Positions 5,551 to 63,018 are shown, counted from the first letter of the stretch. The stretch is DNA of 64,000 nt from a virus (IMGVR_UViG_3300037466_002980:1-64000); one strand, 5' to 3'. Notes: generated by a model from the letters alone, not told the origin. Made by a program: numbers and translations.

Positions 5551-5749
5551 GTTTCAATTTAAACGCTAAACAATCTTCAGTTGATTCAAATACAATAACA
5601 ATGATTGGTTTTATATTACCATTTTCATTTTCGTAAATTACATCTCCATACGCATTAGGCCAATCTTCAAGATATTTTTCAACGTCTCTAAAATTAAAAG
5701 CATATTGAAGTTTGCAAACTTTACCTTCAAAATCCTTAGGAATCTTCAT
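5531..5749 (-). CDS. Small paralog family member
   Basis: FESTEDCLAFKLKHG. Confidence 0.7.
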   Translation of the reverse strand: MKIPKDFEGKVCKLQYAFNFRDVEKYLEDWPNAYGDVIYENENGNIKPIIVIVFESTEDCLAFKLKHGNKCL

Positions 5750-6624
5750 GCTAGACTAGCGTATAAATGCATTTGAAGATTAAGTCTCAATCCATGTTCC
5801 ATACAATATTTGGCTGTATATTCGTGATTCTCTTGATTTTCTTTTAGATTGAGTAACCCCGGTTCCCAAAAAGAAATAACTTCATCTACAGTTGATCTTT
5901 CTTGTAAGGTAATATTACCTTGTTTTTCAGAACGCAACATCTTGATCTTCTGTGGATATGTATTATAGATGTTCATTGGACTTACATAAATTTCTTTGTT
6001 AGGATTATTCTTTCTCCATTCATGCGCCCAATCTGGAATTTCATAATAAGGACTTTCCTTATCAGCACTCATAACAAATTTCAAACAATCTGCTCTTTCT
6101 AAAATTGTTTTGGATGGTGCAAGATACTTAATAGCAACACCATTCTTTTCGCTACATTTCGGACTGCAAACAAGTGTAACACCTTCCGGAACAACGGTAT
6201 CTAAAATACCATTGCTTTCAACTTGAACATTACCAAAATGTTTGAGCTGCCTTTCCATAAAACTACTAATGTTATCTTGCAGAAGTGGTTCGCCGCCTGT
6301 CATAACAAGCACAACACCCGGATAACTATTAAATCCATTTATGGCCCAGCCCGGTGCAGCCTTTCCTTGGTTATTCCAAAAATTACAAATAGTTTCGTAA
6401 ATCTTAGATTCGATTTGTGTTATCGTTAACCAATCTCCATCATCAAAGAAAGTATCACAGAAGGAACATGCAAGATTACATTTCGCTAAACGAACAAACA
6501 ATGCAGGTTTACCAGCATACGGTCCTTCTCCCTGAAGAGTAAAGAACATGCTGGTTACAAATAGACTATCTTTTGGTGCTTCTTTAAAATATTTCTTTCC
6601 GACAATTTCATTCGTCCCGAACAT
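5746..6624 (-). CDS. queE: 7-carboxy-7-deazaguanine synthase (radical SAM)
   Basis: TLQGEG, FVRL, CNLACSFCDT, TGGEP, ESNG, SPK, C-terminal LQMH. Confidence 0.92.
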   Translation of the reverse strand: MFGTNEIVGKKYFKEAPKDSLFVTSMFFTLQGEGPYAGKPALFVRLAKCNLACSFCDTFFDDGDWLTITQIESKIYETICNFWNNQGKAAPGWAINGFNSYPGVVLVMTGGEPLLQDNISSFMERQLKHFGNVQVESNGILDTVVPEGVTLVCSPKCSEKNGVAIKYLAPSKTILERADCLKFVMSADKESPYYEIPDWAHEWRKNNPNKEIYVSPMNIYNTYPQKIKMLRSEKQGNITLQERSTVDEVISFWEPGLLNLKENQENHEYTAKYCMEHGLRLNLQMHLYASLA

Positions 6625-6948
6625 TTATTCTTCTTCCTTATCTATAATATTGTGAATATAATCCACAATAACTTTTGGATCCATATCTTTCTTATAATTT
6701 ATTGCACCATAATAATAATTAGTGGTATGTGTAGGTTCAATAGTAATTTTTGGAAAGAATCTTAAATTGACATAATAATTATCTTTCTTATTATGCAATA
6801 TATAATCCCAGTGGGTGGGATCATTAGAATTTGGAGTAACATCAGCAATATCGAGCCATTCCTGTGCTATTCTTTTTTCTGTTAAATTGAATTCATCTAT
6901 TAGAATTCTTTTTACACAGAGTTGTTCTTCGATCGTAAATTTACTCAT
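6625..6948 (-). CDS. Hypothetical protein
   Basis: ORF abutting queE. Confidence 0.6.
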   Translation of the reverse strand: MSKFTIEEQLCVKRILIDEFNLTEKRIAQEWLDIADVTPNSNDPTHWDYILHNKKDNYYVNLRFFPKITIEPTHTTNYYYGAINYKKDMDPKVIVDYIHNIIDKEEE

Positions 6949-6990
6949 CTATCAAATCCAGAAGAGTTAAAACGGTTTCGATTTTTGCGT

Positions 6991-7620
6991 TCACTGATCA
7001 CCCTTAAGCTTCTCTAACATTTTAGATGCTTCCAACAGATAAGTCAAATCATCTGCATTCAAACTACCTTTTTCCACAGCAATCTTAATTAAATCATTGA
7101 AGATTGAATCGCGTATCTTTCTTTTTGTTGTATCATAGATACCAGCTTTCTTTTCAACTTCTAAGCCGATATAAGAACTAAAATTTTCAGCCGCTTCTTT
7201 AACATCACTTTCTATTGTTGACTGCCATATAATCTTACCATCGTTATCTACACTAAAGACTGTTTCACCCTTTCTGTTCGTTAAGGTAAAAATATATGGA
7301 GAACTATATCCGAATGTTCCGGAATTGATATTAAATGTATATGGAAGTGTATATGTGGTTGCTGTTGTGGCCGCTGTTGTGACTGTTGGTGCCACATATC
7401 CGGTTGTAGTATAGGTAGGATATGAAAATCCACCAGTGGTTACTGCCCCGGTCGGTTGCCATTTAGGAACTGTCGTATTCATTGCACTGTCGGCAGCTAC
7501 CGTTTGTTCTTTGGCTTTAGCCTTTTCGATTGCATTTTCTTTCTTTATAAGTTTTTTCATAAGTTTTCTTATCATACCTCTCCTGTTTGTGATGCATCGA
7601 ATTTTTTCTCCCAATTCCAT
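6991..7620 (-). CDS. Hypothetical protein with Thr-rich linker (start uncertain)
   Basis: Ends MLEKLKGDQ. Confidence 0.65.
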   Translation of the reverse strand: MELGEKIRCITNRRGMIRKLMKKLIKKENAIEKAKAKEQTVAADSAMNTTVPKWQPTGAVTTGGFSYPTYTTTGYVAPTVTTAATTATTYTLPYTFNINSGTFGYSSPYIFTLTNRKGETVFSVDNDGKIIWQSTIESDVKEAAENFSSYIGLEVEKKAGIYDTTKRKIRDSIFNDLIKIAVEKGSLNADDLTYLLEASKMLEKLKGDQ

Positions 7621-8543
7621 GCATGTCTCACTATATCATCGATATTATATTTTGGCGACCAATCTAAGAGATTCTGTGCCTTAGAAATATCGGCCACTAA
7701 GGTAGCCGGATCACCTGCGCGCCTTGGTCCAAAACCAAAATTTGGTTCAACACCTAATACTTTCTTAGCTGAAGATACAAGTTCTTGAACACTTATGCCA
7801 TTGCTTCCACAACCAATATTAAATGTTTCATTTGCTGTTCCATTTAGAAAATCAATTGCCTTCACATGAGCATTGGCTAAATCAGCAACATGAATATAAT
7901 CTCTTACACAAGTACCGTCTTTGGTAGGATAATCATTTCCATATATTGTAAAATGTTCTTGTTTAATAATTTTATTACAAAGAATTGGAATAACATGTGT
8001 AGCTGGACGTTGGGTATATCCAAATCTTCCATTGGGATCTGCACCTGCTGCATTAAAATATCTGAAGATAACGTGTTTCATTCCATATGCCCTGGAATAA
8101 TCCTTAATTAATAATTCTCCAGCTACCTTAGTAGATGCATATGGATTTTCTGGATCATAGAAAAGATCTTCTGTTAATGGACCATTTTTTCCTTGTCTAC
8201 CATAAACATTCCCACTTGAACTGAAAATAATATTCTTTATTCCGGATGCCGACATGATATCAAGTAATGTCTTAATTCTGATTACATTATTTTCATAATA
8301 GGATCTTGGCTTAGTAACACTTTGTTCCACTAAATGATCTGCTGCCAAATGTATTACAGTATCATATTGAATCTTATTATGAAGAAAATAATCTAAATAA
8401 TCAATTTCAATATATTTGATATTTTCAATTCTAGTTTTTATTCTTCTATCAACTACAGTTACCTCATGACCTGAATTTTTTAATGCATCTGAAACTTGTG
8501 TTCCAACAAATCCTGCTCCACCGGTTATTAAAATATTACTCAT
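7572..8543 (-). CDS. galE: UDP-glucose 4-epimerase
   Basis: TGGAGFVG, HLAA, FSSS, YASTK, RYFNAAG, DGTCVRDYIHV, RRAGD. Confidence 0.93.
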   Translation of the reverse strand: MSNILITGGAGFVGTQVSDALKNSGHEVTVVDRRIKTRIENIKYIEIDYLDYFLHNKIQYDTVIHLAADHLVEQSVTKPRSYYENNVIRIKTLLDIMSASGIKNIIFSSSGNVYGRQGKNGPLTEDLFYDPENPYASTKVAGELLIKDYSRAYGMKHVIFRYFNAAGADPNGRFGYTQRPATHVIPILCNKIIKQEHFTIYGNDYPTKDGTCVRDYIHVADLANAHVKAIDFLNGTANETFNIGCGSNGISVQELVSSAKKVLGVEPNFGFGPRRAGDPATLVADISKAQNLLDWSPKYNIDDIVRHAWNWEKKFDASQTGEV

Positions 8544-8760
8544 TATCGGTACCTATTGTTAATTTCTCTATTATTTTATATTCCTCCCATGCTTTACGCA
8601 GGGCAGGATGTTTATCTAAATCCTCTCCGGCCGGTTCAAGAAGAAAAAGTCTTTTTTCAAGATCCTGTATTCTTTTCTCTAATCCAGCGATATAATCAGA
8701 GGTTAATTTCGATCCAGGCCTCGGTGGTGGTTTGATGTCAGAAGCATTAAACCACACCAT
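8536..8760 (-). CDS. Small coiled-coil protein, paralog of 8747..8998
   Basis: LEKRL...HPALRKAWEEYKIIEKL. Confidence 0.7.
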   Translation of the reverse strand: MVWFNASDIKPPPRPGSKLTSDYIAGLEKRIQDLEKRLFLLEPAGEDLDKHPALRKAWEEYKIIEKLTIGTDNE

Positions 8761-8998
8761 TGTTACCTCCGGTAACCAATTTTTCTATTAATTTATAATT
8801 TTCATATGCTTCTTTTAGAGCTGGAAATTTTTCATGCAATTCTGGATTATCATAAAGAACACATAATCTCTTTTCTATTAGATCAAGGCGTTCGTTTACT
8901 TTCCTAAGTTCGACCGAACTTCCATCTCCTACATATGTATAACCACCCATTGTGGGTGATCTCTGCTTATACATCGAATTAAAATCATTTATCGACAT
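8747..8998 (-). CDS. Small coiled-coil protein, paralog of 8536..8760
   Basis: IEKRL...FPALKEAYENYKLIEKL. Confidence 0.7.
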   Translation of the reverse strand: MSINDFNSMYKQRSPTMGGYTYVGDGSSVELRKVNERLDLIEKRLCVLYDNPELHEKFPALKEAYENYKLIEKLVTGGNNGVV

Positions 8999-9546
8999 TA
9001 TTTTACATTCCTTAGATTTCTAATCTTTTTCTTAATTAGATTTTTCTGCACCGGACTTAAATGATCATAGAATGTAATTCCATTAAGATGATCGAGTTCA
9101 TGTTGGAAGCAAATGGCGTCTATACCATTTAGATCCATTTGAATTGTTTCACCTTTCTCATTCATTGCCTCTATCTTAATCCATGTAGGACGTTTCACAT
9201 GTGAAAAGATATTTGGAAAACTTAAACAACCTTCCTTCCATCTTTCAAGTCCACCTGTCTCTAAAATAACCGGGTTTATAAATACCCATCTCTTACTTCC
9301 ATCATTAGAAGTGTCCATTACAAAAATTTTCCTAGTTTCCCCGACCTGGTTTGCAGAAAGGCCTACCCCACCGGCTTGATACATTGTTAGAAACATATTC
9401 TGTATCAATGTTTTTATTTCACGATTAATTTCAGTTACCTCAAGGCAGGGCGTATTGAGTATTGGTTCGGGATAAAGATAGATTTCTAAGATTTTAGGTG
9501 GATCTGTCTCTAATTCTAGTTGTAGTTCTTCAGTCATATTAATCAA
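8998..9546 (-). CDS. def: Peptide deformylase
   Basis: GVGLSANQ, EGCLS, QHELDHLNG. Confidence 0.95.
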   Translation of the reverse strand: MINMTEELQLELETDPPKILEIYLYPEPILNTPCLEVTEINREIKTLIQNMFLTMYQAGGVGLSANQVGETRKIFVMDTSNDGSKRWVFINPVILETGGLERWKEGCLSFPNIFSHVKRPTWIKIEAMNEKGETIQMDLNGIDAICFQHELDHLNGITFYDHLSPVQKNLIKKKIRNLRNVK

Positions 9547-9919
9547 TTAAAAATTCTAAGTGTGCGCCATTTTCGTTATCTTCCGAAACATCAATCTTAA
9601 CTGATCTTCCAGGAAACTTGGCATTAATTTGTTGATATAAATCCTCTGCGATCATTTCGCAGGATTTATAATCCAATTGTAAGGTATTAGTGGAATAAAG
9701 ACTTTCTATCCAACGCTTAAATTGAATAAATTCAATATCCCTATCGTTATGTGTTACCTCAATGGAAACCTGAAAATAAAAAATATGCCTATGTGGATAG
9801 GCAAGAAAACTCACATCAAATTCATCACCTGTGGCTAAATTTGGATCTTCGGCTGCTCTTGGATATTTATGAATTCCTTCTTTTGTAAATTTAACCCAAA
9901 TCCATTTATTATTTGTCAT
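9539..9919 (-). CDS. QueD-paralog T-fold protein (DpdL-like putative CDG decarboxylase)
   Basis: LAYPHRHIF fits LxxxHRHxF instead of QueD CxxxHGH; SCEMIA and VSED motifs. Confidence 0.7.
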   Translation of the reverse strand: MTNNKWIWVKFTKEGIHKYPRAAEDPNLATGDEFDVSFLAYPHRHIFYFQVSIEVTHNDRDIEFIQFKRWIESLYSTNTLQLDYKSCEMIAEDLYQQINAKFPGRSVKIDVSEDNENGAHLEFLID

Positions 9920-10677
9920 TTCTTTACCTTCTTCTTACTCGCCGGCGCTGTTTTTTCTTTACCAGTGTCCTCCGTATAAATCCGGAGAATCTCGTCTCGA
10001 TTAACTTCTGTCGAAATTTTCTGAATGATTTCTTCTTCACTTTCGGTTGCTTTCATGGCTGAAATTCCAGTTGCATCGAGCCCAATATCTGGATTGTTTA
10101 TAACAGGTTCAACTCTATTTACTGGGGTATTATTTATATCCTCTTCAACAATACCATCATCTAAAACGATATCCGAAGAATATTCAAGCCAATCAGTAAA
10201 TCTGTTACTATCGGTTACTTCATGGAAAGGTAGACACCAAACTCCGGGATTAGTAGCCTGAAAATCAATATCATCAAATTTAATAGTTAGATTTGGATTT
10301 GATGTTTCTAGTTTAGGAATTCTAACACTTAGCAACGGGACAAAAATTCTTGATTGCCATACACCCGGTGTGAGCATTTTCAGAACTGTTTCGTGTTGAT
10401 GTGCTGGATAATCCAATGTAACCCAATATCCTCTATCTAGAAGATCGACAATTAATTTATTCCAAGTTTGACCAAAATATTCAGTATAATGCGTTGCATC
10501 AAACGAATGGTTAGCACCTAAAAAAATATGAGTAACCTTATGTTTTCTTGCAACTTCTAGAACATCATCTGTTTTAGCGTAATCAACTACAAATAATGTT
10601 TTCTTTGAAAAGGCTGGCGTTTTTTCTACTTCCGACCCAATAAAATATTTTACTTTTTCATGACCACTTCTTATCAT
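9916..10677 (-). CDS. Hypothetical protein in the deazaguanine/glycosylation operon
   Basis: 253 aa; HIFLGANHSF and TNPGVWC motifs; coupled to the DpdL-like gene. Confidence 0.75.
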   Translation of the reverse strand: MIRSGHEKVKYFIGSEVEKTPAFSKKTLFVVDYAKTDDVLEVARKHKVTHIFLGANHSFDATHYTEYFGQTWNKLIVDLLDRGYWVTLDYPAHQHETVLKMLTPGVWQSRIFVPLLSVRIPKLETSNPNLTIKFDDIDFQATNPGVWCLPFHEVTDSNRFTDWLEYSSDIVLDDGIVEEDINNTPVNRVEPVINNPDIGLDATGISAMKATESEEEIIQKISTEVNRDEILRIYTEDTGKEKTAPASKKKVKK

Positions 10678-10871
10678 ATTTTCCCTTTTAATCTTTTAAT
10701 CATTTCTTCTAATCGAATTTGATATGTTTTTCTTTCTATAAAAATAACTAGAACTCCACACATTCCTATTAACGATAAACCAACAAGAAAATCTCCAAGT
10801 ATTAGAAATAACATTCCGAACATAAGTGTTGCGGCCATTCCTATAAATGCTACAAATAAACTTTCCGGCAT
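10674..10871 (-). CDS. Two-TM small membrane protein
   Basis: Two hydrophobic segments; EEMIKRLKG tail. Confidence 0.7.
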   Translation of the reverse strand: MPESLFVAFIGMAATLMFGMLFLILGDFLVGLSLIGMCGVLVIFIERKTYQIRLEEMIKRLKGKI

Positions 10872-11089
10872 TATCTTTTCAACCTACCCATTAATAATTC
10901 TTCTTCAACAAGATACTGTCTATATTTTACTAGAGAAAAGCCATGGAATGCAATAGTACCAAGCATGAAAATTATACCAGCAATTGCAAGAAATGGTTTA
11001 AAAACTAATGCCGGAATTATAAAAATTTCGGCTATCATTAGAAAACCTGTAATCCAAAAAATTAGTTTCCAGATTCTGGAGTTAAGCAT
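10871..11089 (-). CDS. Two-TM small membrane protein
   Basis: EEELLMGRLKR tail. Confidence 0.7.
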   Translation of the reverse strand: MLNSRIWKLIFWITGFLMIAEIFIIPALVFKPFLAIAGIIFMLGTIAFHGFSLVKYRQYLVEEELLMGRLKR

Positions 11090-11364
11090 TATCTTGGTCC
11101 GGTATAACTGGAGGTATATTTTATGCCTTTTAACCTATTAAACAATTCGTCTTCTTTATTCCTTTTTTTCTGTGCATAGGCTAACATAATCACCCCTTCC
11201 CATATTCCGGCGGCAGTTACCAACTCAAACGAATTAAATACATCATAAGGTTCGGGAAGTATCATCAATATGATTGTGACTATAATAGATATCATCAATA
11301 GCCACACACCTGCTTGACCGATCGCATTCCCGAAGGGATCATCACACAATCTAGCGGCGGCCAT
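11089..11364 (-). CDS. Two-TM small membrane protein
   Basis: EDELFNRLKG tail. Confidence 0.7.
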   Translation of the reverse strand: MAAARLCDDPFGNAIGQAGVWLLMISIIVTIILMILPEPYDVFNSFELVTAAGIWEGVIMLAYAQKKRNKEDELFNRLKGIKYTSSYTGPR

Positions 11365-11686
11365 ATCTTAACCTATTAATAACAGCTTCTTCGATTTTAA
11401 AATGCTCTTCGGATTTACCGTGAGCAATTAAACTACCAAATGCACAAAGGGCCTGTATGAATGCCATTACAATAAATGCAAGAAAAACATAGGAATTTGA
11501 ACTGAAAAATATTACAGGAAAAGTTATTAGGCTAAAAACAAAACCTAATCTCATCATTCTTACAGAATAGATATTCCAACGTTCACTTTCAAAAACGGAG
11601 GTAGGCATAGGCCATATGAAAGAAAGAAAACCCTTCTTTCTTACAGGCCTATCTACTGGATCATTAGCATTAAGATCTGGAATCAT
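11351..11686 (-). CDS. Two-TM small membrane protein
   Basis: EEAVINRLRYG tail. Confidence 0.7.
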   Translation of the reverse strand: MIPDLNANDPVDRPVRKKGFLSFIWPMPTSVFESERWNIYSVRMMRLGFVFSLITFPVIFFSSNSYVFLAFIVMAFIQALCAFGSLIAHGKSEEHFKIEEAVINRLRYGRR

Positions 11687-12870
11687 TAATATTTTGCTTT
11701 GGTAACATGCTTTCTATAATCAACAGAATTTCTTTCCCATTGTTTATAATCGTTTGTTTCGGTGAAAATATCAAGTGTCCTATCAATAGTGCCATCTTGC
11801 CAATCACTTACCTTACCAGTTTCATAACTGGCAGGATTAACAAACATCTTTTCCAATTTTTCAGCCGCATCATCAAGGCTCCAAGGAATATACATGTTCT
11901 TCGGATTATTAGCAAATACTTCCGGAAAACTTCTATATGCCGGATACAAAGTAAGAGTACCAAACGTATCCGCTTCACTAACTGTGTTGCTAACCCAATC
12001 TTGCAATGCACAATTAAAAAGCACAACGCTATCCGCAAGCATTTCGTAATAGTCGTCCTTCCTCAAACCAGTATACACTTTGAAGTTTGCCTTATCGCTT
12101 TCTTCAAGAAATTTAGCAAATTCCAAATGGTTCTTGTTATTGCTCTTCAGTGCAGGATGACCGGTAAGAACTGCAAATTCAACTTCCGGACGTGTCTTAT
12201 ACATTCTTTGTGCAAGTTGCATAAAGAATTCCGGTTGTTTTTCATCATCCCAACGCGCAGCAAACACTACACGCTGTTCGCGTGAAGTAATCGGTTTAAT
12301 ATACGTGAGCCTGCTCAAAACTTCCTCTTTGCCAAAGGGCAGACCTGTCACATAAATCGGTGCTTTAAAGCCGGCGATTCTTAAATGTGCCACCATTTCT
12401 TCACTAGCAACCAAAATACCAGAAACGAATTTATCAATCATCAATTCATAATTTCGCATCCAATCAGACATGCCTTCGCGATTAACGAAATCATCCGGAT
12501 CAATGGATTGTGCTAAACACCGAACAAAAACCTGTGGACGGAATTTCTTAGGAATCTGATCCATAATATATGGAAGAGATTCAATTCCGGGAGTAAACAT
12601 ATCTTCATAGAAGATCACATCCTTATTGGTAATTTGACCTTCTTTCATCAACTTAACCAATTTGGCAGTTTGCATCAAACTGTAATAAGTTCTTCCATGG
12701 GCATCAAGAACACTACCAGTCACAATCTGTTTATCAGTACTTAGTTCTTCGCCGGTGATGCATTCGTATTCGATTTCTCGACGTTGAAATACACGCTCAT
12801 TCCAATCTTGCAATTGAAGTGTATAACGTGCTTCATAAGACTCCAGGCCCATGTAGAAAAGTTTACGCAT
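11686..12870 (-). CDS. GT-B glycosyltransferase (GT4/QTMAN-GTDC1-like)
   Basis: FAARWDDEKQPEFF, YYEMLADS, DWVSNTVSEA, YPAYRSFPEVF. Confidence 0.85.
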   Translation of the reverse strand: MRKLFYMGLESYEARYTLQLQDWNERVFQRREIEYECITGEELSTDKQIVTGSVLDAHGRTYYSLMQTAKLVKLMKEGQITNKDVIFYEDMFTPGIESLPYIMDQIPKKFRPQVFVRCLAQSIDPDDFVNREGMSDWMRNYELMIDKFVSGILVASEEMVAHLRIAGFKAPIYVTGLPFGKEEVLSRLTYIKPITSREQRVVFAARWDDEKQPEFFMQLAQRMYKTRPEVEFAVLTGHPALKSNNKNHLEFAKFLEESDKANFKVYTGLRKDDYYEMLADSVVLFNCALQDWVSNTVSEADTFGTLTLYPAYRSFPEVFANNPKNMYIPWSLDDAAEKLEKMFVNPASYETGKVSDWQDGTIDRTLDIFTETNDYKQWERNSVDYRKHVTKAKY

Positions 12871-12899
12871 TTGTAGATCTCCGGTTCAGGTAATGCTTA

Positions 12900-12928
12900 A
12901 TTTTAATGCAAATAAATGAATGTGTCAA
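12900..12928 (-). promoter_or_regulatory. sigma70-type early promoter
   Basis: TTGACA-N17-TAAAAT upstream of the glycosyltransferase. Confidence 0.8.
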
Positions 12929-12942
12929 ACACTCAGTTATAT

Positions 12943-13164
12943 TTAGGATTGATCGTATTTAACAATATCAAATTCTGTTTCTGCATAATCTGTATAAATG
13001 GGTTCTCCCATAAGCATCCATTCAAGTTCGTCAACTTCATTGTAATCAGGAGTATATCTGCGACGGTAAATGTGTTTCAACCAAATTCTTTTATTAGAGA
13101 TGGTAATCACAGGTTTCCACGCGAACCATTTCTTCCAAGATTTATCATTTTCCAAAGATTTCAT
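12943..13164 (-). CDS. Hypothetical protein (WKKWFAWKPV motif)
   Basis: Coupled ORF. Confidence 0.65.
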   Translation of the reverse strand: MKSLENDKSWKKWFAWKPVITISNKRIWLKHIYRRRYTPDYNEVDELEWMLMGEPIYTDYAETEFDIVKYDQS

Positions 13165-13510
13165 CTGCCAATGATAACCAAAAATTAATCTGAGATTTAA
13201 TTATATCTTTCCTGAGATGATATTCCGCAAAGGTCCGAAAAATAGCATGGTCAAAATCTTTTATTGTATTTAAGTTTACCGAAGGATCCACATTTATGGA
13301 ATCTTCATATATTGTTTCAATCCAAATTGGATAGCCTCCTAACATATAACTTCTGCAATCAATTACCACATTTTGCAATGTAAATAATGCCACCTCTGGA
13401 TTCTTTTTATAAAGTTCCAGCAAAGGAGCAAGCCCATCCTCAACTTTTTCTGATTCAAAATTATAATTGAAATTATATTTTAATTTCAAATATGTTTCGT
13501 GTTCTTTCAT
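13145..13510 (-). CDS. Paralog family with N-terminal YLKLKY
   Basis: Shares N-terminus, VALF core and W..EI end with neighbours. Confidence 0.7.
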   Translation of the reverse strand: MKEHETYLKLKYNFNYNFESEKVEDGLAPLLELYKKNPEVALFTLQNVVIDCRSYMLGGYPIWIETIYEDSINVDPSVNLNTIKDFDHAIFRTFAEYHLRKDIIKSQINFWLSLADEIFGK

Positions 13511-13872
13511 GAAAAGATCTCACCAGAAATAGAAAACCACTTATAAAAATGATCAATAATTTCTTTTGAATTTGCTTTCTTACAATAAAAAATATCCCAA
13601 GCACAACTATCTAAATCTTCAACTATATAATCAAATTCATTGCCCTCAAGATATTCATTAAAATATTCATATGTTCCAGCATGAGTGTAATCTATAGATT
13701 GTTGAAGATCTCTCTGTAGAAGAAAATCGATTTGAAGATTTAAGAATGCGAATAATGCTACATCACCATAATCTTTCAAAAGCTGATGTAATACTGTATA
13801 AGGATTATTGTCATCTTCGACATCATAATCAATTTTATATTTTAATTTCGCAAATAATAGATTATCTTTCAT
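13507..13872 (-). CDS. Paralog family with N-terminal FAKLKY
   Basis: Same layout as 13145..13510. Confidence 0.7.
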   Translation of the reverse strand: MKDNLLFAKLKYKIDYDVEDDNNPYTVLHQLLKDYGDVALFAFLNLQIDFLLQRDLQQSIDYTHAGTYEYFNEYLEGNEFDYIVEDLDSCAWDIFYCKKANSKEIIDHFYKWFSISGEIFS

Positions 13873-14309
13873 TAGAAAAATTTCTTTAATTTCGGATCTT
13901 CCAAACCAGCTAACTTATTTAAACTTTTTTCTTGTTCGGCAAATTCATATTCTTGATTAACACGCGCGGTAAGATAGTTTCGGATTGTGGCCCTATTTTC
14001 CCAAATAAAATTTTCATATCTGAATAGACCATTACAAGGACAATCTAGGACAAAAACAATTCCGTTTATTTCTCTTCCGGAAACGCAATCATAACCATAA
14101 TGGAGAATTACCTTATCTGGACCTTTTTTATTTTCTTCATCACAGTAAGATTTCCAATTATCCACATCATAGGAACAGTCTGAACCCGGACATAAATGTA
14201 ATCTTCCACACCATCCACATTCAAGTTCAGCGCTTCCTACACCAAAGGTAGAAATAGAATCAATAAACATCTCTGATGGAGGTGTCGAACTATCTCTAGG
14301 ATTACTCAT
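13872..14309 (-). CDS. Cys-rich hypothetical protein (possible Zn-binding)
   Basis: CGWCGRLH...CPC. Confidence 0.7.
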   Translation of the reverse strand: MSNPRDSSTPPSEMFIDSISTFGVGSAELECGWCGRLHLCPGSDCSYDVDNWKSYCDEENKKGPDKVILHYGYDCVSGREINGIVFVLDCPCNGLFRYENFIWENRATIRNYLTARVNQEYEFAEQEKSLNKLAGLEDPKLKKFF

Positions 14310-14656
14310 GAATTATGAATTTCTTCGCTTACTAGAATCCAGTCACCAAGTCGATTGACTACTATATCGTTGGTAACACCCGCTCTTTCCAATACAGCCA
14401 TTTCATCGGAAATAGTAGTTTCGGACATTTGAATGTGAGCTTCGTTCAAAGGATCTACATAACCTTTTAAAAGTAATTCTGTCGTTTTTTCGGGATCATT
14501 GCGATACTGTTCGTATTCTGAAAGTAAATCTGCAATAAATTGATACAATGCAAAAGATCCAATTTCTGTAGATGAAAGTGATCTAATCGTATCAAATGAT
14601 ATATTATTATCTAAATTATATCGAAGCTTTAAATAAAACTTATCTTCTTCCTTCAT
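14306..14656 (-). CDS. Paralog family with N-terminal YLKLRY
   Basis: MKEEDKFYLKLRY...WILVSEEI; start moved to the ATG matching its paralogs. Confidence 0.7.
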   Translation of the reverse strand: MKEEDKFYLKLRYNLDNNISFDTIRSLSSTEIGSFALYQFIADLLSEYEQYRNDPEKTTELLLKGYVDPLNEAHIQMSETTISDEMAVLERAGVTNDIVVNRLGDWILVSEEIHNS

Positions 14657-14790
14657 GTTTTTGATCTTTCTGCTCATCGGCAATAATATTTCTCATATAA
14701 TGACAAATTGATTGCAGATATTCAAACTCCAAATTATCAGTAATTAATTTTTCGTATAAAAGATCTTCTGACTAAGGATTTAATGGATCC

Positions 14791-15048
14791 TTATTTGGAA
14801 TGTTTGAGCACATACGCAATCGCATCCTCACCCTGTATTATAACAGATTGACTTGAATAGACCAAAAAACCACTATGAAATCGTGACTGACCTGGAGAAA
14901 CCACCTCTACAGAGATCATTTTCGGATTTAACTTTATTACCTTGCATATTTTCATTACATTATTTCTTGGAACAGCGACATAATTTCCCAATTTAACTTC
15001 GACCCCAAGAATATCAAAGTGTTTCTTTTCAATTTTTTCTGTAGTCAT
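14791..15048 (-). CDS. Hypothetical SH3/KOW-like small protein
   Basis: DILGVEVKLGNYV; ends EDAIAYVLKHSK. Confidence 0.65.
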   Translation of the reverse strand: MTTEKIEKKHFDILGVEVKLGNYVAVPRNNVMKICKVIKLNPKMISVEVVSPGQSRFHSGFLVYSSQSVIIQGEDAIAYVLKHSK

Positions 15049-15233
15049 TGTGTCCCCATAAACTCTTTTATTATTCTTGTAATTTCCTGATCTAATTCTT
15101 TTAAAATCTTATCAACCTTTCTTCTCTGACGTTCCTCCGGTGTGGTAGATAATTTATCAATAATTTTATCAGCCTCGTTAAGCTCTTCATTTGGCATTTT
15201 ATCAATATCCATAATAAAAATCTTCCTGCTCAT
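15045..15233 (-). CDS. Hypothetical protein
   Basis: Coupled ORF. Confidence 0.55.
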   Translation of the reverse strand: MSRKIFIMDIDKMPNEELNEADKIIDKLSTTPEERQRRKVDKILKELDQEITRIIKEFMGTQ

Positions 15234-15433
15234 GTTCTTTGTTTATGACGTATTTTACTCTTTTTACGTTTAGGATTGCAATAATTAGGTTTACAATCTG
15301 CAAAGATAGAATGAGCTAATATCAATCCATTATATAATCCCGATTGATATTCATTTCCACGATTTATAAAATCTTTCTGTATTGTTATACAGCTTTCAAG
15401 ATTAGATAATTTTTTTTGTAATTCGTCATTCAT
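15230..15433 (-). CDS. Hypothetical protein
   Basis: ATG overlaps the end of dpdA; YQSGLYNGLILA. Confidence 0.6.
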   Translation of the reverse strand: MNDELQKKLSNLESCITIQKDFINRGNEYQSGLYNGLILAHSIFADCKPNYCNPKRKKSKIRHKQRT

Positions 15434-16973
15434 CGATTTGAATAATATCCTCAGCACCTGGTGCTGCAAGTTCTTCCACATCTGGAATGTGTTCTGTTTC
15501 TTCAGAATCACCGAACAACGATCCAAATGTACTTGCTTTCTTCTTATCACCAAAACTTACAAAATCAAGGAATGTTTCATTTTCCTTAATCATTCCATAA
15601 GGATCTTTATTATCGGGATCTAATAACTTAGAAACAAAATCGTTAAAGTATAAAATTGTACTAGGAACAAAATCACTTAGACTCTTTTTATTTCTACTTT
15701 GATACCAATCTCTATAATCAATATTTTCCCTGGAAGCATAATCCATATCGGCTAATCTATTAATTTCCTGAATAGCTTGAATGTGATTATATACGTTATG
15801 TGCCATTACCAGTGCATAGGTAGTTGTATCCCAACTAGTCTTGCCTTCTTTGTTATGTTTATTAAGATCTCCAGGACCAAGAACACACATATCACTTGCA
15901 TACAATCTTTCCATAATCGGACCTTGAAATGGCATTGCAATTTTCTTATTCTTTAATTTCTTATCATCAATCCCCCTACCCATTGCATAGGTTAATTGTT
16001 CTGGTTTGAAATAATTATAATTGTACGAAAGTGCATAACCACCTGCAGCAACAAAAGGAGATGCAGCATCGAAACTAATATTAATATTTGGATTATAATG
16101 CTTCTTTAAATTTCTTTCAATAGAAGTCAAATAACATGCCCAATCTAATCTACCAATTCCTAAGAAGTGAATCCAATCTTTTCCAGCAAGCAGGTTGTCT
16201 TTTCGAAGATCAACTATTCTGTTTAGAACAGTAGCCATATTCTTCATGTTGATACCAGCAAATGCCCATCCTTCTAATGTTCTATCCTTGCTATATCCCA
16301 TTGCCTCTACCATTTCGGGCATACTGAAATATTTTACCCTTTCATACCATTCTTTAGAATTCTGATTATCGCTACCAGATAATACATTCAAGAACTTTGT
16401 TGCTCCCGGTACTCTATTTTTCATAAAATAATGAAGATTATGTTCGGTTACATCCAAACAGTCGGAAAATTTGGTTAATCCTGTTTTTTCACTCAATGGT
16501 GGAAGTGCTGCAAATGCTGGTACATCTAGTGTCATTGACCAATCGGAAGTTGCTTCGAGATATCTTAAAATTTCCTCTCTGAGTTTATCTCCCTCTGGAC
16601 CCTTCACTGTTTTCCAATCTAATTTAATTACACCGGTAGCAATTTGAAATCCACCCGAATCACCAATTAGTATTGTTTTCTCTCTATCTCTCTTATGTAT
16701 CATTGGTTCGCGTTCTACCATTTTAGATAAATTGCGTTCCGCATGACCAGCAGAATATAGAGCGAATTTATAATTGAAATAACTATTATCTTCGTCTAGG
16801 AAATTAAGTCCCTGTAATCCTAATTCAAAATTTTCAGGAACTCGCTCCGGTGGTACAAAATTAGGATCGGCTGCTGCCTTTCCTAAATGTGTGGCATAAA
16901 AACCACTAATGGCTGGAAGGTATTTTGCCCAGCCACCTTCAATATGTCTTTTGGTAAGATCTAATTTGGGCAT
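15426..16973 (-). CDS. dpdA: TGT-like DNA 7-deazaguanine transglycosylase (DpdA-type)
   Basis: DSGGFQ, MTLDVP, GWAFAG, HFLGIG, SFDAASP, HN motifs; lacks the tRNA-TGT Zn Cys cluster; near clamp and polymerase. Confidence 0.8.
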   Translation of the reverse strand: MPKLDLTKRHIEGGWAKYLPAISGFYATHLGKAAADPNFVPPERVPENFELGLQGLNFLDEDNSYFNYKFALYSAGHAERNLSKMVEREPMIHKRDREKTILIGDSGGFQIATGVIKLDWKTVKGPEGDKLREEILRYLEATSDWSMTLDVPAFAALPPLSEKTGLTKFSDCLDVTEHNLHYFMKNRVPGATKFLNVLSGSDNQNSKEWYERVKYFSMPEMVEAMGYSKDRTLEGWAFAGINMKNMATVLNRIVDLRKDNLLAGKDWIHFLGIGRLDWACYLTSIERNLKKHYNPNINISFDAASPFVAAGGYALSYNYNYFKPEQLTYAMGRGIDDKKLKNKKIAMPFQGPIMERLYASDMCVLGPGDLNKHNKEGKTSWDTTTYALVMAHNVYNHIQAIQEINRLADMDYASRENIDYRDWYQSRNKKSLSDFVPSTILYFNDFVSKLLDPDNKDPYGMIKENETFLDFVSFGDKKKASTFGSLFGDSEETEHIPDVEELAAPGAEDIIQIDE

Positions 16974-17158: not shown

Positions 17159-17908
17159 TTATCCCTTGACAGCTGGAAGAATATATTCGTATTTTCCAAT
17201 ACCACTATCAATTTCAATCATTAATGCACCTTGATCTGAAAATTTCATAACTGTCTTTTCGGCGGTATCACTTAATTTAAGAATATTGAGTACCTGTGCA
17301 AGTGGCCACGACCAGGATAATTTCAATGTTCCGGTAATGTTTGTTGCAAACGGTACAACTGTTCTATCAGTTGGACCAGAACCAATGCTAAACATTAATG
17401 TTCCGTTGTTGACCGAAACAATAAATCTCTTTTCAAAAGATCCTAAAATTCCTTGGAAATAAGCAAGTTCGGAAATCTTTTTCTTTTCTGGTTCAAATGA
17501 AATATTCCAATTTGCACCTCTGAATGGCGGAACCTTCACAGTTTCTGTCACCATCGCTTCACTCATAAATCGATAATTGGCAGTATGACCTGTTCCACTA
17601 TCAAATTTAATTTCAGTCGGAACTACTACGTTATTTCTATTTTCAGTAATAACCGTTGTATTCGATTTGTCACTACCAAATAATGGAAAATCTAAATATC
17701 CTTTTAGAATTGCCATTCTCGAAACTCCGACTGTAGAGTCAATTCCTGTAATTGGTTGGTACATACTTCCATATAGAACTACAGTTCTATCTGCATCCAT
17801 TGCTTCAATCTTAGCATCATTCGAAGAGCCCATTAATTTAACTGCTTCAAATAACCCAAGTGAATGAGTATGCTTTATAATATCTTTGAAATCATCAACT
17901 AAACTCAT
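17159..17908 (-). CDS. DNA polymerase sliding clamp (gp45/PCNA-like)
   Basis: 249 aa beta-rich protein ending YEYILPA, next to the DNA polymerase. Confidence 0.7.
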   Translation of the reverse strand: MSLVDDFKDIIKHTHSLGLFEAVKLMGSSNDAKIEAMDADRTVVLYGSMYQPITGIDSTVGVSRMAILKGYLDFPLFGSDKSNTTVITENRNNVVVPTEIKFDSGTGHTANYRFMSEAMVTETVKVPPFRGANWNISFEPEKKKISELAYFQGILGSFEKRFIVSVNNGTLMFSIGSGPTDRTVVPFATNITGTLKLSWSWPLAQVLNILKLSDTAEKTVMKFSDQGALMIEIDSGIGKYEYILPAVKG

Positions 17909-17998: not shown

Positions 17999-20950
17999 TT
18001 AAATTGCTGAAAAATCAAAAAGAGTCTCTAGATGAGCATGTTCCTTATCAGTTCTGGTTAAGTCCCAATTTAAAACACCCAAGAGATTCTTTACCTTCTG
18101 ATCCACAATACCAGACATCATATCATCACTATCAAATGGAAGTTCAATAAACCAATCCGGTAAATGACTTTCATCAACTGGATATGCAATGCTAGTAAGA
18201 GTATTATCGGTTGTCTGTTTAAGTTTACAAACAATAATTTTCTGACCATCAATAATCTTCATTGAGTGCTGATCTCTATGAATTTCTTTCAATCTATTCC
18301 ATGCCAAACTTGCTCTAACGTGACCTGGCATGGTCACACCACCTGTGGCAGTTCCACTTGCCTTTCTCGAAGCATGTAATTCTTCTTTTTCCCTATAAAA
18401 GGATAGTTTATTAACTGCCCGTGGAGTACCCTGTTGCCATGGTTTCAAACTTTCAAATTTTTCCTTGAAATTTCGAATCTTTTCAATTACGAAATCCTCT
18501 CCCTTGCTTAATAAGGTATCAAGTAAAATTTCTGATAAGAATTCCTGCACAAATTTTGGTGTATCGGCCCTTTTTAAATCCAACCCCATGGCTTTTACTT
18601 TGCCTGGTTTTCCACCAACATCCAATCTAATTCCATCCTTATCATACATTAAACAAGCATAACGCTTCTTAACAATCCAAATACCGGTTTCTGAAATAGT
18701 TTCTCTGGAGCTTGCAATAACACCAGTTGATCTTTTCATTGGTACATTTAATTTCTTATCTAAGAATTCTGGAAATGTTGCTGAAACTGCCTTTGCTAAA
18801 TCATTATATAAATCAATGATACTTTCCTTGGTCCAGACAATTTCTCCTTTAGCAATTTCATCCTTTACAATTGGGTATGCTGAAAAATAACACGAGTCTG
18901 TATCACCATAGATAATAGCCTTACCATAATGATCATATTCTCCGGTAATCATTTCATTGGTCTTAGATGCCATATGTCTTGTAATAGTTCTACCAGTTAA
19001 GGTAGTTGATTGTCCAAGACGTTGATCAAAGAAACGACTTCCTGCATTTAAAAGAGCACCATATGCTGAGTTTAAGTTAATCTTTTTAACCAACTGTCTC
19101 TTATCCCAAAATGGAATAATTTTCTTTTTAAGTGTTTCCTGATCTCTATGAATTGCTTTCCCATCCTTAACCATTAAATTATGTTGGTTCATATATTGAA
19201 CAACACGCTTCTTGTGTCCTTCTTCGATAATTTCCTTTAATTTTTTTGGTTTATAGGATTCAGATTCCAAAAATGGATTAGCCTTAGTTTCTACATCGCT
19301 GATATCTTCATTTGTAAACAATTCTACCGGAACAGAAACACCCTCAATCTTTGGATTATCCTCCACATCTTGATAGTTTGTCATAATTCCCTGGAGGATC
19401 TTACGTTCGCTGTACCATCTAGTTAATAGTGATGGAATAATACCATCCTCGTCTGTTCTAAAAATAGTACCATTGGCACTGATACACCATGGCTGACCAC
19501 TTTCAAAGATTAAATCATATAATTCTTTTCCGGTAACTTCAAATACATTGCCATCTTCCATTTCAAGTGTAAGTTTGGTACCGATATCTTGACTATAAAA
19601 TTCTTCCATTTCAAGAACATTGAATCTATCGTTCCACCATGAAGCAAATGTATATTTGCTTCCGCGTGCTTCCCATTCAGCAATTGCTTGATAAGTTCTA
19701 TCCAGTTTAATCTGTCCAACAATTGTTTCTGGACTCATATTAAGGGCACGAATAACAGATGGATACAATGACTTCATATCAGTTGATGCAATCCATCTAT
19801 GAAATCCTTTCTTCGGAGTTGCAACCCACGCTCCAGCCGCACGCGATGAAGATTCATCCTTGTGCTTCTTATCTGGGCACGCCATATTCTTACTATGTGC
19901 TTCCATTAAGACAGCTTGGTCTGTAACGGCAACCGCACCCATTGTTGTTTGAATTAAAACACAATTGGCATGTGCAATCGAATTGGCCAAATCAATAAAC
20001 TGAAGCTTTCTATCTAACTTATCAAGTAATCTTGTATCCTGTATGTTATATTCTAGAAACTTCTTGAAGTCATCATTATAAAGTTCATCTAATGTTCCAT
20101 CATATGCAACCTTGCTTTCTCCCAATTCAATATCAGAGATAGCATTCAATGCATAACTATGTCTTTCTTCATAGTTATATTTTTTGTAGAGCTGAAGATA
20201 GTCAACGTGTACTCTACCGATTAAATCATATGTTGGTTGTGTCTTTCCACCACGTTCAAATTCTCTCACGCGTGGTTCTTGTTCCCAAAGGCACAATTTT
20301 CTAGCTTCGTGCTTTCCTAAGACTTTCTTGACTCTGTTCACCACATATGGAATATCATATGCCTCACTATTCCATCCACTTAATACATCAGCATCTTCAA
20401 TAACATCCATGAATGCTTGAAGCATTTCTCCTTCTGTTTTGAACAGAACAACATTTCCTACTTCTTCAGCAATAACCTGTGCTTCATCCCAGGTTAATGT
20501 TTCGGGTGGAATAGCTAAACATACAATTTCATTAATCCACTGTAAATGAACAGAAATGGATGTGATATAATTATTGGCATCTGCTGCCTCGGACCATCCT
20601 TCCTCTTTATCAAAACTAGTTTCAATATCAAAGAAGGCAATATTTAATGCCGGAGCGTCTGAGTGTTGATAATTTTGTTCTAAACAACGGAAAATGGGAT
20701 CTACATCAGTTTCCCATTTCTTCACATTGTTTGAAAGTGATTTGATTAGTTTTTGTTTTTCTCCAAATGTCCTTGGAGATACCTTCTTAACATAATCTCC
20801 ATAAATGGATTTATATGTTCCTTTTATGTCGGTGATAAAAAAATGGTAATCGGGTGTAAATTCTCTATAAACACGCTTACCATTTACTCTTTCTACAATT
20901 TTGATTACTTCCTGATCACCGCCACGTTTGAATAGTGCATCGATATAAAT
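17999..20950 (-). CDS. Family B DNA polymerase (gp43-like); probable ATT start
   Basis: ExoI DIET, ExoII WNSEAYD, ExoIII YNIQD, DMKSLYPS, KINLNSAYG, YGDTDS; frame open 75 codons upstream of the ORF-track start. Confidence 0.95.
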   Translation of the reverse strand: MYIDALFKRGGDQEVIKIVERVNGKRVYREFTPDYHFFITDIKGTYKSIYGDYVKKVSPRTFGEKQKLIKSLSNNVKKWETDVDPIFRCLEQNYQHSDAPALNIAFFDIETSFDKEEGWSEAADANNYITSISVHLQWINEIVCLAIPPETLTWDEAQVIAEEVGNVVLFKTEGEMLQAFMDVIEDADVLSGWNSEAYDIPYVVNRVKKVLGKHEARKLCLWEQEPRVREFERGGKTQPTYDLIGRVHVDYLQLYKKYNYEERHSYALNAISDIELGESKVAYDGTLDELYNDDFKKFLEYNIQDTRLLDKLDRKLQFIDLANSIAHANCVLIQTTMGAVAVTDQAVLMEAHSKNMACPDKKHKDESSSRAAGAWVATPKKGFHRWIASTDMKSLYPSVIRALNMSPETIVGQIKLDRTYQAIAEWEARGSKYTFASWWNDRFNVLEMEEFYSQDIGTKLTLEMEDGNVFEVTGKELYDLIFESGQPWCISANGTIFRTDEDGIIPSLLTRWYSERKILQGIMTNYQDVEDNPKIEGVSVPVELFTNEDISDVETKANPFLESESYKPKKLKEIIEEGHKKRVVQYMNQHNLMVKDGKAIHRDQETLKKKIIPFWDKRQLVKKINLNSAYGALLNAGSRFFDQRLGQSTTLTGRTITRHMASKTNEMITGEYDHYGKAIIYGDTDSCYFSAYPIVKDEIAKGEIVWTKESIIDLYNDLAKAVSATFPEFLDKKLNVPMKRSTGVIASSRETISETGIWIVKKRYACLMYDKDGIRLDVGGKPGKVKAMGLDLKRADTPKFVQEFLSEILLDTLLSKGEDFVIEKIRNFKEKFESLKPWQQGTPRAVNKLSFYREKEELHASRKASGTATGGVTMPGHVRASLAWNRLKEIHRDQHSMKIIDGQKIIVCKLKQTTDNTLTSIAYPVDESHLPDWFIELPFDSDDMMSGIVDQKVKNLLGVLNWDLTRTDKEHAHLETLFDFSAI

Positions 20951-61777: not shown

Positions 61778-62080
61778 TTAGATAAGCCCTTTTATTTTAA
61801 GGGACAAGGCATCTACACCTGCAATTTCATATATGTTTACATCTGCCCCAATTAATAAGGCAGTCTTGCCTTCGGGAAGTATCTTACTAAGAGTTTCCCT
61901 TGTGTGTTCCAGATATGCTGTTGAAAGAAATTTTGTTTCTCTAGGAAGCTGAACAATTAGAACAGTATTCGGATCACTTTCCATTTCGTGAAGGAAACCA
62001 ATTGTACCTTCCGTAGGACTTTTGATTTCTTTCATATTAATATCCTTCGAAAAGATCTTCGTTATCTTCCCTGTGTCCAA
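61778..62080 (-). CDS. Hypothetical protein ending DALSLKIKG
   Basis: ORF in operon. Confidence 0.6.
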   Translation of the reverse strand: MDTGKITKIFSKDINMKEIKSPTEGTIGFLHEMESDPNTVLIVQLPRETKFLSTAYLEHTRETLSKILPEGKTALLIGADVNIYEIAGVDALSLKIKGLI

Positions 62081-62525
62081 CCCTCATAGCCATATTTGAA
62101 TCGGTTTCTCTCACTTCAACTTTACAACACCAAATTCTCTTTGCTTCTTCTGTACCATATTGTGGTAAGAAAATACCATTTATATATTTGTATAAGAAAT
62201 CTGAAATTCCTTCACAACCAGTTTTTTCAACTTCTGTTACCTTGGCTAAACCTAATTCTCCAAGTTTTTTAATATCATCATAATTCGGATCGTCCTGTGC
62301 CAATAGAAGACAATGATCAAACTTATCTTCTAGAAATTCCTTTAATGGTTTCAATCCACCAAAGTCCATTGCCCAATTTCTTGCATCTAATGTATCGCAT
62401 TCAAATTCAAAATGAAATGATAATGCATAACCATGAATCAAATTACAATGACTATCTGCTCTCCATTGTCTATATGCTACTGGAGCAATTTGTCTATAAG
62501 TTTTTGTCGATATATATTTCGCCAT
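62037..62525 (-). CDS. queD: 6-carboxytetrahydropterin synthase
   Basis: SHCNLIHGY, DFGGLK, FDH, GCE, VEVRET. Confidence 0.88.
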   Translation of the reverse strand: MAKYISTKTYRQIAPVAYRQWRADSHCNLIHGYALSFHFEFECDTLDARNWAMDFGGLKPLKEFLEDKFDHCLLLAQDDPNYDDIKKLGELGLAKVTEVEKTGCEGISDFLYKYINGIFLPQYGTEEAKRIWCCKVEVRETDSNMAMRVGHREDNEDLFEGY

Positions 62526-62526
62526 T

Positions 62527-63018
62527 TTATTCCTGTTCATTCTTAGGTGGTAATATTTCAGTTAAAGGTGTTTCTTCAATGTTGAGTTTATAATTGCTTC
62601 CGGAGCCGGGTCGACCAGACCCTTTTCTATCTCCCTTAAATTCGCCCTTCATTTTTGCACCTTTCCTTGTTTTTCCTTTTGCTGTTGCAAGTTGCTGTTC
62701 AAATTCTGGATCATATTTGAAAACATACAATCTGGATTCTTTATTCTGAATTACCCATAATTCAATTTTCTTTTCAGATTCAGAAACAACTCGATAATCT
62801 TTGAATTCGAATTGTCCTTGTGGTACACCAGGATATGGTCTTCCAAATAGGTTTTCACCATCCATTACTAATACAAAAGTAATTGCTATAATAAACGGAA
62901 TTGTTGTAAATTTCAACCAATATCCGAATGGTAATCTTATAATCAAGAAACAACATAAGGCAGCCAATCCGATATTTAAGAACATCAGAACATTAAGAAA
63001 TGGAAGTAATGATAACAT
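62527..63018 (-). CDS. Two-TM protein of the MotA/B-like module
   Basis: Two TMs then G.P and IELWV...RLY. Confidence 0.65.
   Translation of the reverse strand: MLSLLPFLNVLMFLNIGLAALCCFLIIRLPFGYWLKFTTIPFIIAITFVLVMDGENLFGRPYPGVPQGQFEFKDYRVVSESEKKIELWVIQNKESRLYVFKYDPEFEQQLATAKGKTRKGAKMKGEFKGDRKGSGRPGSGSNYKLNIEETPLTEILPPKNEQE

Follow-up and report, generated by a model that had tools for sequence, protein, structure and literature searches.

Conserved linkage of a DpdA-like transglycosylase, DpdL and a glycosyltransferase suggests a candidate sugar-bearing 7-deazaguanine in viral DNA

To our knowledge, all known sugar decorations of phage DNA are on pyrimidines and all known deazaguanines of DNA are sugar-free. 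We searched the literature for a glycosylated deazaguanine in DNA and no paper was found. The DpdL/DpdA3 system of Cellulophaga phage phiST gives 2'-deoxy-7-deazaguanosine (dDG), which is unglycosylated (Cui, Hutinet et al., NAR 2023, PMC10516641). The role of DpdL as a decarboxylase of 7-carboxy-7-deazaguanine (CDG) is a proposal, the authors having been unable to reconstitute the activity, type members included; when dpdL and dpdA of phage ACP17 were expressed in E. coli, no dDG was obtained and it was suggested that extra enzymes were perhaps needed (PMC10516641). In the DNA of phage PA5oct, G-containing restriction sites are resistant to cleavage; the G is modified, its structure is still to be solved, and the phage is attacked by nucleases sensing hypermodified DNA (PMC12191111). 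Here we describe a viral locus in which genes for DpdL and a long DpdA-like transglycosylase lie close to a glycosyltransferase gene. It lies in the opening 64 kb of the record of an uncultured phage, 362,810 bp long, which has direct terminal repeats and a G+C content of about 34% (IMGVR_UViG_3300037466_002980:1-64000; this whole 64,000-nucleotide stretch is called the window). An earlier note on this DNA, made from the sequence, had read the locus as a candidate pathway for sugar-decorated 7-deazaguanine.

The virus of the window resembles phiST in having FolE, QueD, QueE, a DpdL with the LxxxHRHxF signature and a distant DNA transglycosylase of the tRNA-guanine transglycosylase (TGT) family, without a real QueC. 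It differs in that phiST has no homologue of the glycosyltransferase, the UDP-glucose 4-epimerase GalE (UDP, uridine diphosphate) or a 253-aa protein, all present here, and its transglycosylase is the 259-aa DpdA3, whereas that of the window has 515 aa. PA5oct and its relatives (Wroclawvirus) share with the window a syntenic block of polymerase, PCNA, DpdA-like protein (50% identity), glycosyltransferase, DpdL (61%) and QueE. They differ in that their glycosyltransferase is of another subtype (about 22% identity), and a purine phosphoribosyltransferase and a truncated epimerase-like gene are found instead of GalE. We propose that the most likely function of the locus is to equip virion DNA with a 7-deazaguanine that bears a sugar, a reading to which we give about an even chance. 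Slightly more tentatively, we suggest that the three-gene core of DpdA-like protein, DpdL and glycosyltransferase, found in unrelated phage lineages and some bacterial chromosomes, writes a glycosylated 7-deazaguanine, which would make it the first purine with a sugar to occur naturally in DNA, and that swapped glycosyltransferases and sugar-nucleotide genes would lead to different sugars.

The DpdA-like protein, DpdL and the glycosyltransferase are locked together as one module. The linkage was followed in three samplings, namely viral contigs collected with a DpdL alignment (80 loci), viral contigs collected with the single glycosyltransferase protein (80 loci, 63-83% identity) and a genome collection. 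In the DpdL-seeded sample, hidden Markov model (HMM) searches found the glycosyltransferase beside the DpdA-like protein and DpdL in 70 of the 80 contigs; nine of the ten contigs without it end no more than 1.25 kb from DpdL, and of the 71 related viral contigs that are not truncated, 70 have the triad. The usual order in this sample is polymerase, PCNA, DpdA-like protein, 253-aa protein, DpdL and glycosyltransferase. In the opposite direction, the loci seeded with the glycosyltransferase of the window ('type 1') contained DpdL in 75 of 80 cases, the DpdA-like protein in 74 and, beside the glycosyltransferase, a GalE-type short-chain dehydrogenase/reductase (SDR) in 71, in three gene orders, that of the window being common to its closest relatives. 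In the genome collection, this type of DpdA-like protein was present in 24 untruncated loci, each of which had a glycosyltransferase adjoining DpdL. The earlier note had raised the possibility that the glycosyltransferase occurs independently of dpdA, which is not what was seen in 74 of the 80 loci seeded with it. Of the genes whose co-occurrence with dpdA it had named as a check, the glycosyltransferase accompanies the DpdA-like gene near-totally; GalE (71/80) was frequent, not obligatory, and the 253-aa gene (67/80 and 55/80 in the two viral samples) was frequent.

Six cultured lineages carry the triad: PA5oct-like phages, Phosso, ACP17, X1, BCSR5 and the cyanophage BUCT-ZZ01. Module homologues are abundant, with thousands in metagenomes. 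No glycosyltransferase was detected in whole-record searches of the DpdL phages phiST, RHph_I1_18, Bakedbeans, D479 and Ahp1, by a search that also missed the DpdA-like protein of BUCT-ZZ01; HMM searches limited to a distance of 10 kb from DpdL likewise found none in these phages. They have another, or no detectable, long DpdA-like gene, and thus the glycosyltransferase tracks the long DpdA-like enzyme and not DpdL alone. The loci of the genome collection include contigs with the triad from the cultivated bacteria Magnetospirillum aberrantis SpK, Aurantimonas sp. VKM B-3413, Methylobacterium frigidaeris and Methylobacterium sp. EM32 (two copies); in these bacterial contigs (L200, L209, L211, L212 and L213, L-numbers being those of our related loci) neither FolE nor QueE lies within 10 kb.

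The 515-aa protein (15426-16973, minus strand) adjoins PCNA. It had no match in Pfam, PHROGs or NCBIfam, PDB sequences searched with the single sequence or with a profile yielded nothing above noise, and the Pfam TGT model PF01702 was unmatched by this protein and genome-wide, its BCSR5 homologue scoring 12 bits only. The protein was resolved by fold search alone. The AlphaFold2 (AF2) model (pLDDT 91.7, pTM 0.91) has a TGT-type (beta/alpha)8 barrel, and its 50 best PDB matches in Foldseek were all tRNA-guanine transglycosylases (probability 1.00, E 1e-6 to 7e-5). In BFVD the model matched phage TGT/DpdA proteins, including that of nt-1 and, weakly, DpdA3 of phiST. The catalytic-Asp motif DSGG[FY]Q, a hallmark of guanine transglycosylases, is present as LIGDSGGFQ at residues 102-110. 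In an alignment of 69 members reaching down to 27% identity, there is no variation at D105, S106, G108, P152, H269, G272 and D302, and conservation is at least 90% at G107 and Q110. Candidates for the second catalytic Asp (the nucleophile) and for the base-binding Asp/Gln/Gly positions are D150, N196, G200, G235 and D302, which vary little or not at all and whose surrounding motifs, as judged from the alignment, are similar to those of TGT. The Cys/His cluster of the TGT zinc site was not seen, there being no Cys among the (near-)invariant columns of this alignment.

The family of the 515-aa protein comprises at least 788 clusters at 50% identity. Profile comparison gave 96.9% with ACP17 gp123 and 95.4% with a 416-aa protein of BUCT-ZZ01; the similarity to phiST DpdA3 (CGPG_00065) was weak (hhalign probability 72.9% over 84 columns, Foldseek E 1.9e-3). 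From the model we are confident in assigning the 515-aa protein as a putative long, divergent DpdA-type enzyme beyond the reach of the Pfam TGT model, in agreement with the earlier note, which had placed a DpdA-type transglycosylase just upstream of the gene run, near the clamp and polymerase. Its context (PCNA, polymerase, DpdL, QueE, QueD and FolE) suggests that it would exchange guanine for 7-deazaguanine in DNA.

The 126-aa QueD-like T-fold protein (9539-9919, minus strand) contains LAYPHRHIF, which fits LxxxHRHxF, the signature named for DpdL (PMC10516641) that replaces the CxxxHGH of QueD. It matches phrog_17812, and in tblastn it is 51% identical to ACP17 DpdL (E 9e-34) and 37% to that of phiST (E 4e-11), while H17, H43, H45, H57, E63 and E113 are invariant in the family alignment. 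By these sequence features the protein that the earlier note had called DpdL-like is assigned as a true DpdL. We also observed two much longer reading frames in which DpdL is the C-terminal third, a 383-aa one in Vibrio phage Bakedbeans (gp176, L010:9212-10363) and a 293-aa one in Chryseobacterium phage MA9V-3 (L015:9431-10312); these may be fusions with an N-terminal domain of unassigned kind.

Genes for the supply of the base are present in the same genome. QueD (167 aa, 62037-62540, minus strand) scored 56.7 bits with PF01242, above the cut-off. The QueE-like radical SAM enzyme (292 aa, 5746-6624, minus strand) matches phrog_2076, annotated as 'QueE-like', with E 3.4e-50 and has the CxxxCxxC cluster motif as CNLACSFC; against the NCBIfam QueE equivalogs it stays under every threshold (best 70.6 bits vs a cut-off of 200). 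It is true that the window lacks QueC, QueF and FolE, as the earlier note had said, and FolE was found just outside it, at 65285-65821 of the genome, 1.3 kb past the window end. A PP-loop protein at about 202 kb reached 18 bits with TIGR00364 (cut-off 150 bits) and 32.9 bits with Pfam QueC on its C-terminal 55 residues, which is too weak for it to be called QueC. The genome thus has FolE, QueD and QueE without a real QueC, the pattern published for DpdL.

The glycosyltransferase (394 aa, 11686-12870, minus strand) is acidic (pI 5.3) and has no membrane segment. All of the eight family members tested matched PF00534 (Glycos_transf_1; best E 8e-12), and the family profile matches GT4 enzymes of the PDB, namely WlaC (1.2e-6), PimA, MshA and GlgM. 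R206 and K211, candidates for the donor-binding R/K motif, and E299 do not vary in the family; these residues line up with the GRLxxxKN and ExxxxxxxE motifs of WlaC. Two subtypes, about 22% identical, alternate among phages whose DpdL proteins are about 70% identical. Additionally, a second glycosyltransferase paralogue of 445-447 aa was observed in BUCT-ZZ01 (L001:9010-10353) and in two viral contigs (L077:15494-16831 and L096:12389-13732); it could add a second sugar. GT4 matches of the type found in Xanthomonas phage PhiXhv were set aside, their context being different (beside GlmS and a deacetylase) and the match being to the C-terminal domain only. PhiXhv-12 itself (L016:6621-9855, L018) has a 573-aa long DpdA-like open reading frame (ORF) at 217 kb and, separately, at 123 kb, the GT4 gene beside GlmS and an LmbE-type deacetylase, which may represent another sugar-linked DNA modification.

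GalE (323 aa, 7572-8543, minus strand) scored 326.3 bits with the equivalog TIGR01179 (cut-off 262.3) and has the motifs GGAGFVG (GxxGxxG) and YASTK (YxxxK). In the DpdL-seeded sample, a GalE-type SDR directly follows the glycosyltransferase subtype of the window in 16 of 20 loci, and two of three such SDRs that were tested lay above the GalE cut-off. GalE is therefore a frequent, not an obligatory, partner of the glycosyltransferase. Modules of relatives carry further inserts: sugar-nucleotide genes (GalE equivalogs, a cytidylyltransferase-like/mannose-6-phosphate isomerase C-terminal (cupin) protein, and GFO/IDH/MocA and ADH-like oxidoreductases) and others (radical SAM/SPASM enzymes, a 2-oxoglutarate (2OG)-type, Asp/Arg-hydroxylase-like oxygenase, a methyltransferase, GMP reductase/IMPDH and a second glycosyltransferase), examples being L092:9550-17394, L053:7686-9465, L089:8722-9450 and L096:4414-5193. 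This variety of tailoring genes suggests a family of different end products. The genome of the window has no homologue of the relatives' phosphoribosyltransferase, 2OG hydroxylase or IMPDH/GMP reductase, and for their radical SAM/SPASM enzymes the sole match is a distal radical SAM gene, located at about 237 kb. We also noticed that a purine phosphoribosyltransferase adjoins QueE in PA5oct-like phages (L002:13922-14356) and in BUCT-ZZ01 (L001:7093-7554), which hints at a branch of the pathway at the nucleotide level.

At the DNA level, no phage record matched the region (megablast against phage records). By protein, the nearest cultured kin of the replication block are PA5oct-like Pseudomonas jumbo phages, with identities of 56% for DNA polymerase, 49% for PCNA and 50% for the 515-aa protein. 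Every gene between 5.7 and 21 kb is on the minus strand. In the direction of transcription, DNA polymerase (17999-20725), PCNA (17159-17908) and the 515-aa DpdA-like gene are followed by eight small ORFs and a 72-nt gap; then come the glycosyltransferase, four membrane ORFs, the 253-aa gene, DpdL, the peptide deformylase Def, two small ORFs, GalE, a 209-aa ORF, a 107-aa ORF and the QueE-like gene. At all 13 junctions from the glycosyltransferase through QueE, the neighbouring genes either overlap or are no more than 42 nt apart. The genes that had been named before were thus found in place, on the minus strand and in a tightly packed run. The single promoter that had been put at the head of this run is a less certain matter: a TTGACA-17-TAAAAT site does lie in the 72-nt gap before the glycosyltransferase (12928-12900, minus strand, 11 of 12 consensus matches), but the region contains 57 promoter-like sites against 55.2 in shuffled sequence, so that the site has no statistical weight.

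The conserved 253-aa protein (9916-10677, minus strand) is a frequent accessory of the module, with 910 homologues and a place next to DpdL in the counts given above; its homologue in ACP17 is gp122. In the AF2 model it has an alpha/beta N-terminal domain of about 170 aa (pLDDT >90 at residues 10-120) and a variable tail. It had no PDB sequence match and its best Foldseek hit (E 0.02) was not convincing. An assignment as a STAS domain was rejected, the VIA Z of 7.4 lying inside the noise range, and it is unrelated to phiST CGPG_00066.

The other genes of the run are of a different kind. The four tandem small membrane ORFs (10674-11686, minus strand; 111, 91, 72 and 65 aa) each have one or two hydrophobic segments and share a C-terminal tail of acidic residues followed by RLK or RLR, and look like tandem paralogues. 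In BLAST searches neither they nor the 107-aa ORF had a counterpart in the 160 related loci. Def (8998-9546, minus strand; PF01327, 170.9 bits) was found in none of the 80 DpdL-seeded loci and in 13 of the 80 glycosyltransferase-seeded ones, and the 209-aa ORF in 17 of 80 loci, in both cases in the closest relatives only. Since they are poorly conserved, these genes are passengers and not members of the module. The earlier reading of the whole run as one pathway is supported, at the level of linkage, for the glycosyltransferase and GalE, which are linked by neighbourhood in both search directions, and not for the four membrane ORFs and Def. As a separate observation, a peptide deformylase gene lies near deazaguanine genes in two architectures and in Rhizobium phage RHph_I1_18 (L009:6341-6922), which could be due to chance or to shared early expression.

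Taken together, the gene content would fit a pathway of four steps. From family membership, FolE, QueD and QueE are predicted to convert guanosine triphosphate (GTP) to CDG, and DpdL would turn CDG into 7-deazaguanine or a close derivative, as its family and the literature proposal suggest. The 515-aa TGT-fold enzyme, again judged by its family, would then swap guanine in DNA for that base. Finally, the conserved neighbourhood suggests that the GT4-like enzyme may use a UDP-sugar to attach a hexose to the deazaguanine, whether as the free base before insertion or as the base within DNA. By the same neighbourhood, GalE could balance the UDP-glucose and UDP-galactose pools for the glycosyltransferase. 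For the acceptor, one precedent would be N2, as in huimycin and dapiramicin.

Several points weigh against a sugar-bearing base in virion DNA. phiST has DpdL and yet, without this glycosyltransferase, makes sugar-free dDG. If the product of DpdL is plain 7-deazaguanine, as was proposed for phiST, it offers no obvious hydroxyl for a typical GT4 reaction. The glycosyltransferase of the window itself reached only 18.8 bits with PF00534, below the cut-off of 26.4, and has D-x7-E in place of E-x7-E (LQDWVSNTVSE); it is GT4-like by sequence, for which a GT-B fold with two Rossmann domains would be expected. GalE is absent from four full-length loci of the closest relatives (L102, L104, L107 and L177). 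In general, the neighbourhood fits a DNA acceptor and a small-molecule acceptor alike, and the chemistry of the triad is a prediction from its genes.

The most probable alternative is that the DNA contains a sugar-free deazaguanine, dDG or the deoxynucleoside of CDG (dCDG), and that the substrate of the glycosyltransferase is a soluble intermediate or some helper molecule, the enzyme for example forming a transient free-base glycoside that is removed at or before insertion, or serving in a step that enables the activity of DpdL or the DpdA-like enzyme. We consider this unlikely, while taking it seriously. Such a role is in line with the plain dDG of phiST, a DpdL phage, with the sole known 7-deazapurine glycosyltransferase, which uses the free base, and with the inactivity of ACP17 dpdL and dpdA alone in E. 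coli; the acidity of the glycosyltransferase also points this way, weakly, because the DpdA-like protein is acidic too. A transient sugar would, however, be an unusual cost, and the swapping of subtypes only about 22% identical together with varied sugar-nucleotide genes is like the diversification of an exposed end product, as among T-even glucosyltransferases.

It is more improbable still that the glycosyltransferase targets another DNA base, a protein or the DpdA-like enzyme itself and shares with the deazaguanine genes only the regulation of an early or replication-linked anti-restriction operon. Unrelated genes do occur in the operon (Def and the membrane ORFs) and the module lies within a replication block beside PCNA and polymerase. 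On the other hand, the triad also holds together where the polymerase block is absent, in bacterial contigs, and across three gene orders, and the glycosyltransferase is conserved whereas the passengers are not. For a pyrimidine target, no dCMP or dUMP hydroxymethylase was found in the genome, and its only ThyA-family gene is a true thymidylate synthase (equivalog TIGR03284, 238.8 bits vs a cut-off of 108.35), which makes a hydroxymethyl-pyrimidine route unlikely. That the glycosyltransferase and GalE remodel the host surface polysaccharide or lipopolysaccharide, for example for superinfection exclusion and unrelated to DNA, is very improbable: the PDB relatives are polysaccharide and glycolipid enzymes, the Joint Genome Institute (JGI) label of some members is 'glycosyltransferase involved in cell wall biosynthesis' and four membrane ORFs lie directly downstream, but the reciprocal co-occurrence with DpdL and the DpdA-like protein is near-total, the membrane ORFs are in none of the 160 related loci, a membrane segment is missing from the glycosyltransferase and the genes seen in the module include none for export or polyprenol-linked steps.

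In favour of a glycosylated 7-deazaguanine in DNA, we count the identities of the enzymes, the two-way linkage of the neighbourhood and the sugar-nucleotide genes in the modules of relatives; in addition, the modified G of PA5oct, the inactivity of the ACP17 dpdL and dpdA pair and the huimycin precedent are consistent with it. If the prediction is true, glycosylated deazapurines would form a class of DNA bases that is chemically new, with consequences for restriction, CRISPR, modification-sensing nucleases, sequencing chemistry and the supply of DNA-modifying enzymes. It would explain the modified G of PA5oct, a jumbo phage relevant for therapy, and may explain the failure of dpdL and dpdA in E. 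coli. At least six triad lineages are in culture, so the prediction is directly testable.

The glucosylation of hydroxymethylcytosine (hmC) in T-even phages is similar to the proposed system in that a phage sugar transferase acts on a non-canonical base with a UDP-sugar, and transferase types are swapped between kin. It differs in the base, which is a pyrimidine, and in its handle, a hydroxymethyl group made before replication, for which no hydroxymethylase was found here. The T-even alpha- and beta-glucosyltransferases are likened to our enzyme by the description of the systems, the latter being GT4-like by its own sequence. A sugar on a 7-deazaguanine base within a nucleic acid is found in animal tRNA, as mannosyl- and galactosyl-queuosine (QTMAN/GTDC1), the acceptor there being the cyclopentenediol hydroxyl. 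Between QTMAN/GTDC1 and the phage glycosyltransferase no specific similarity was seen in Pfam or PDB sequence matches: eight family members had no GTDC1-type N-terminal domain among Pfam matches with E up to 1, and the family profile had no GTDC1 chain among PDB sequence matches with E up to 10. In the biosynthesis of huimycin, the glycosyltransferase N-glycosylates a free 7-deazapurine at the 2-amino group (PMC7439116). Huimycin is different as an actinomycete secondary metabolite whose precursor is O-methylated preQ0; its pathway neither includes a DpdA nor acts on a nucleic acid. The huimycin/dapiramicin case is alike in that the glycosyltransferase HuiG is encoded beside homologues of FolE, QueD and QueE and puts a sugar onto a 7-deazaguanine-derived base, and it is by this reaction and gene context, not by sequence, that HuiG is likened to the phage glycosyltransferase.

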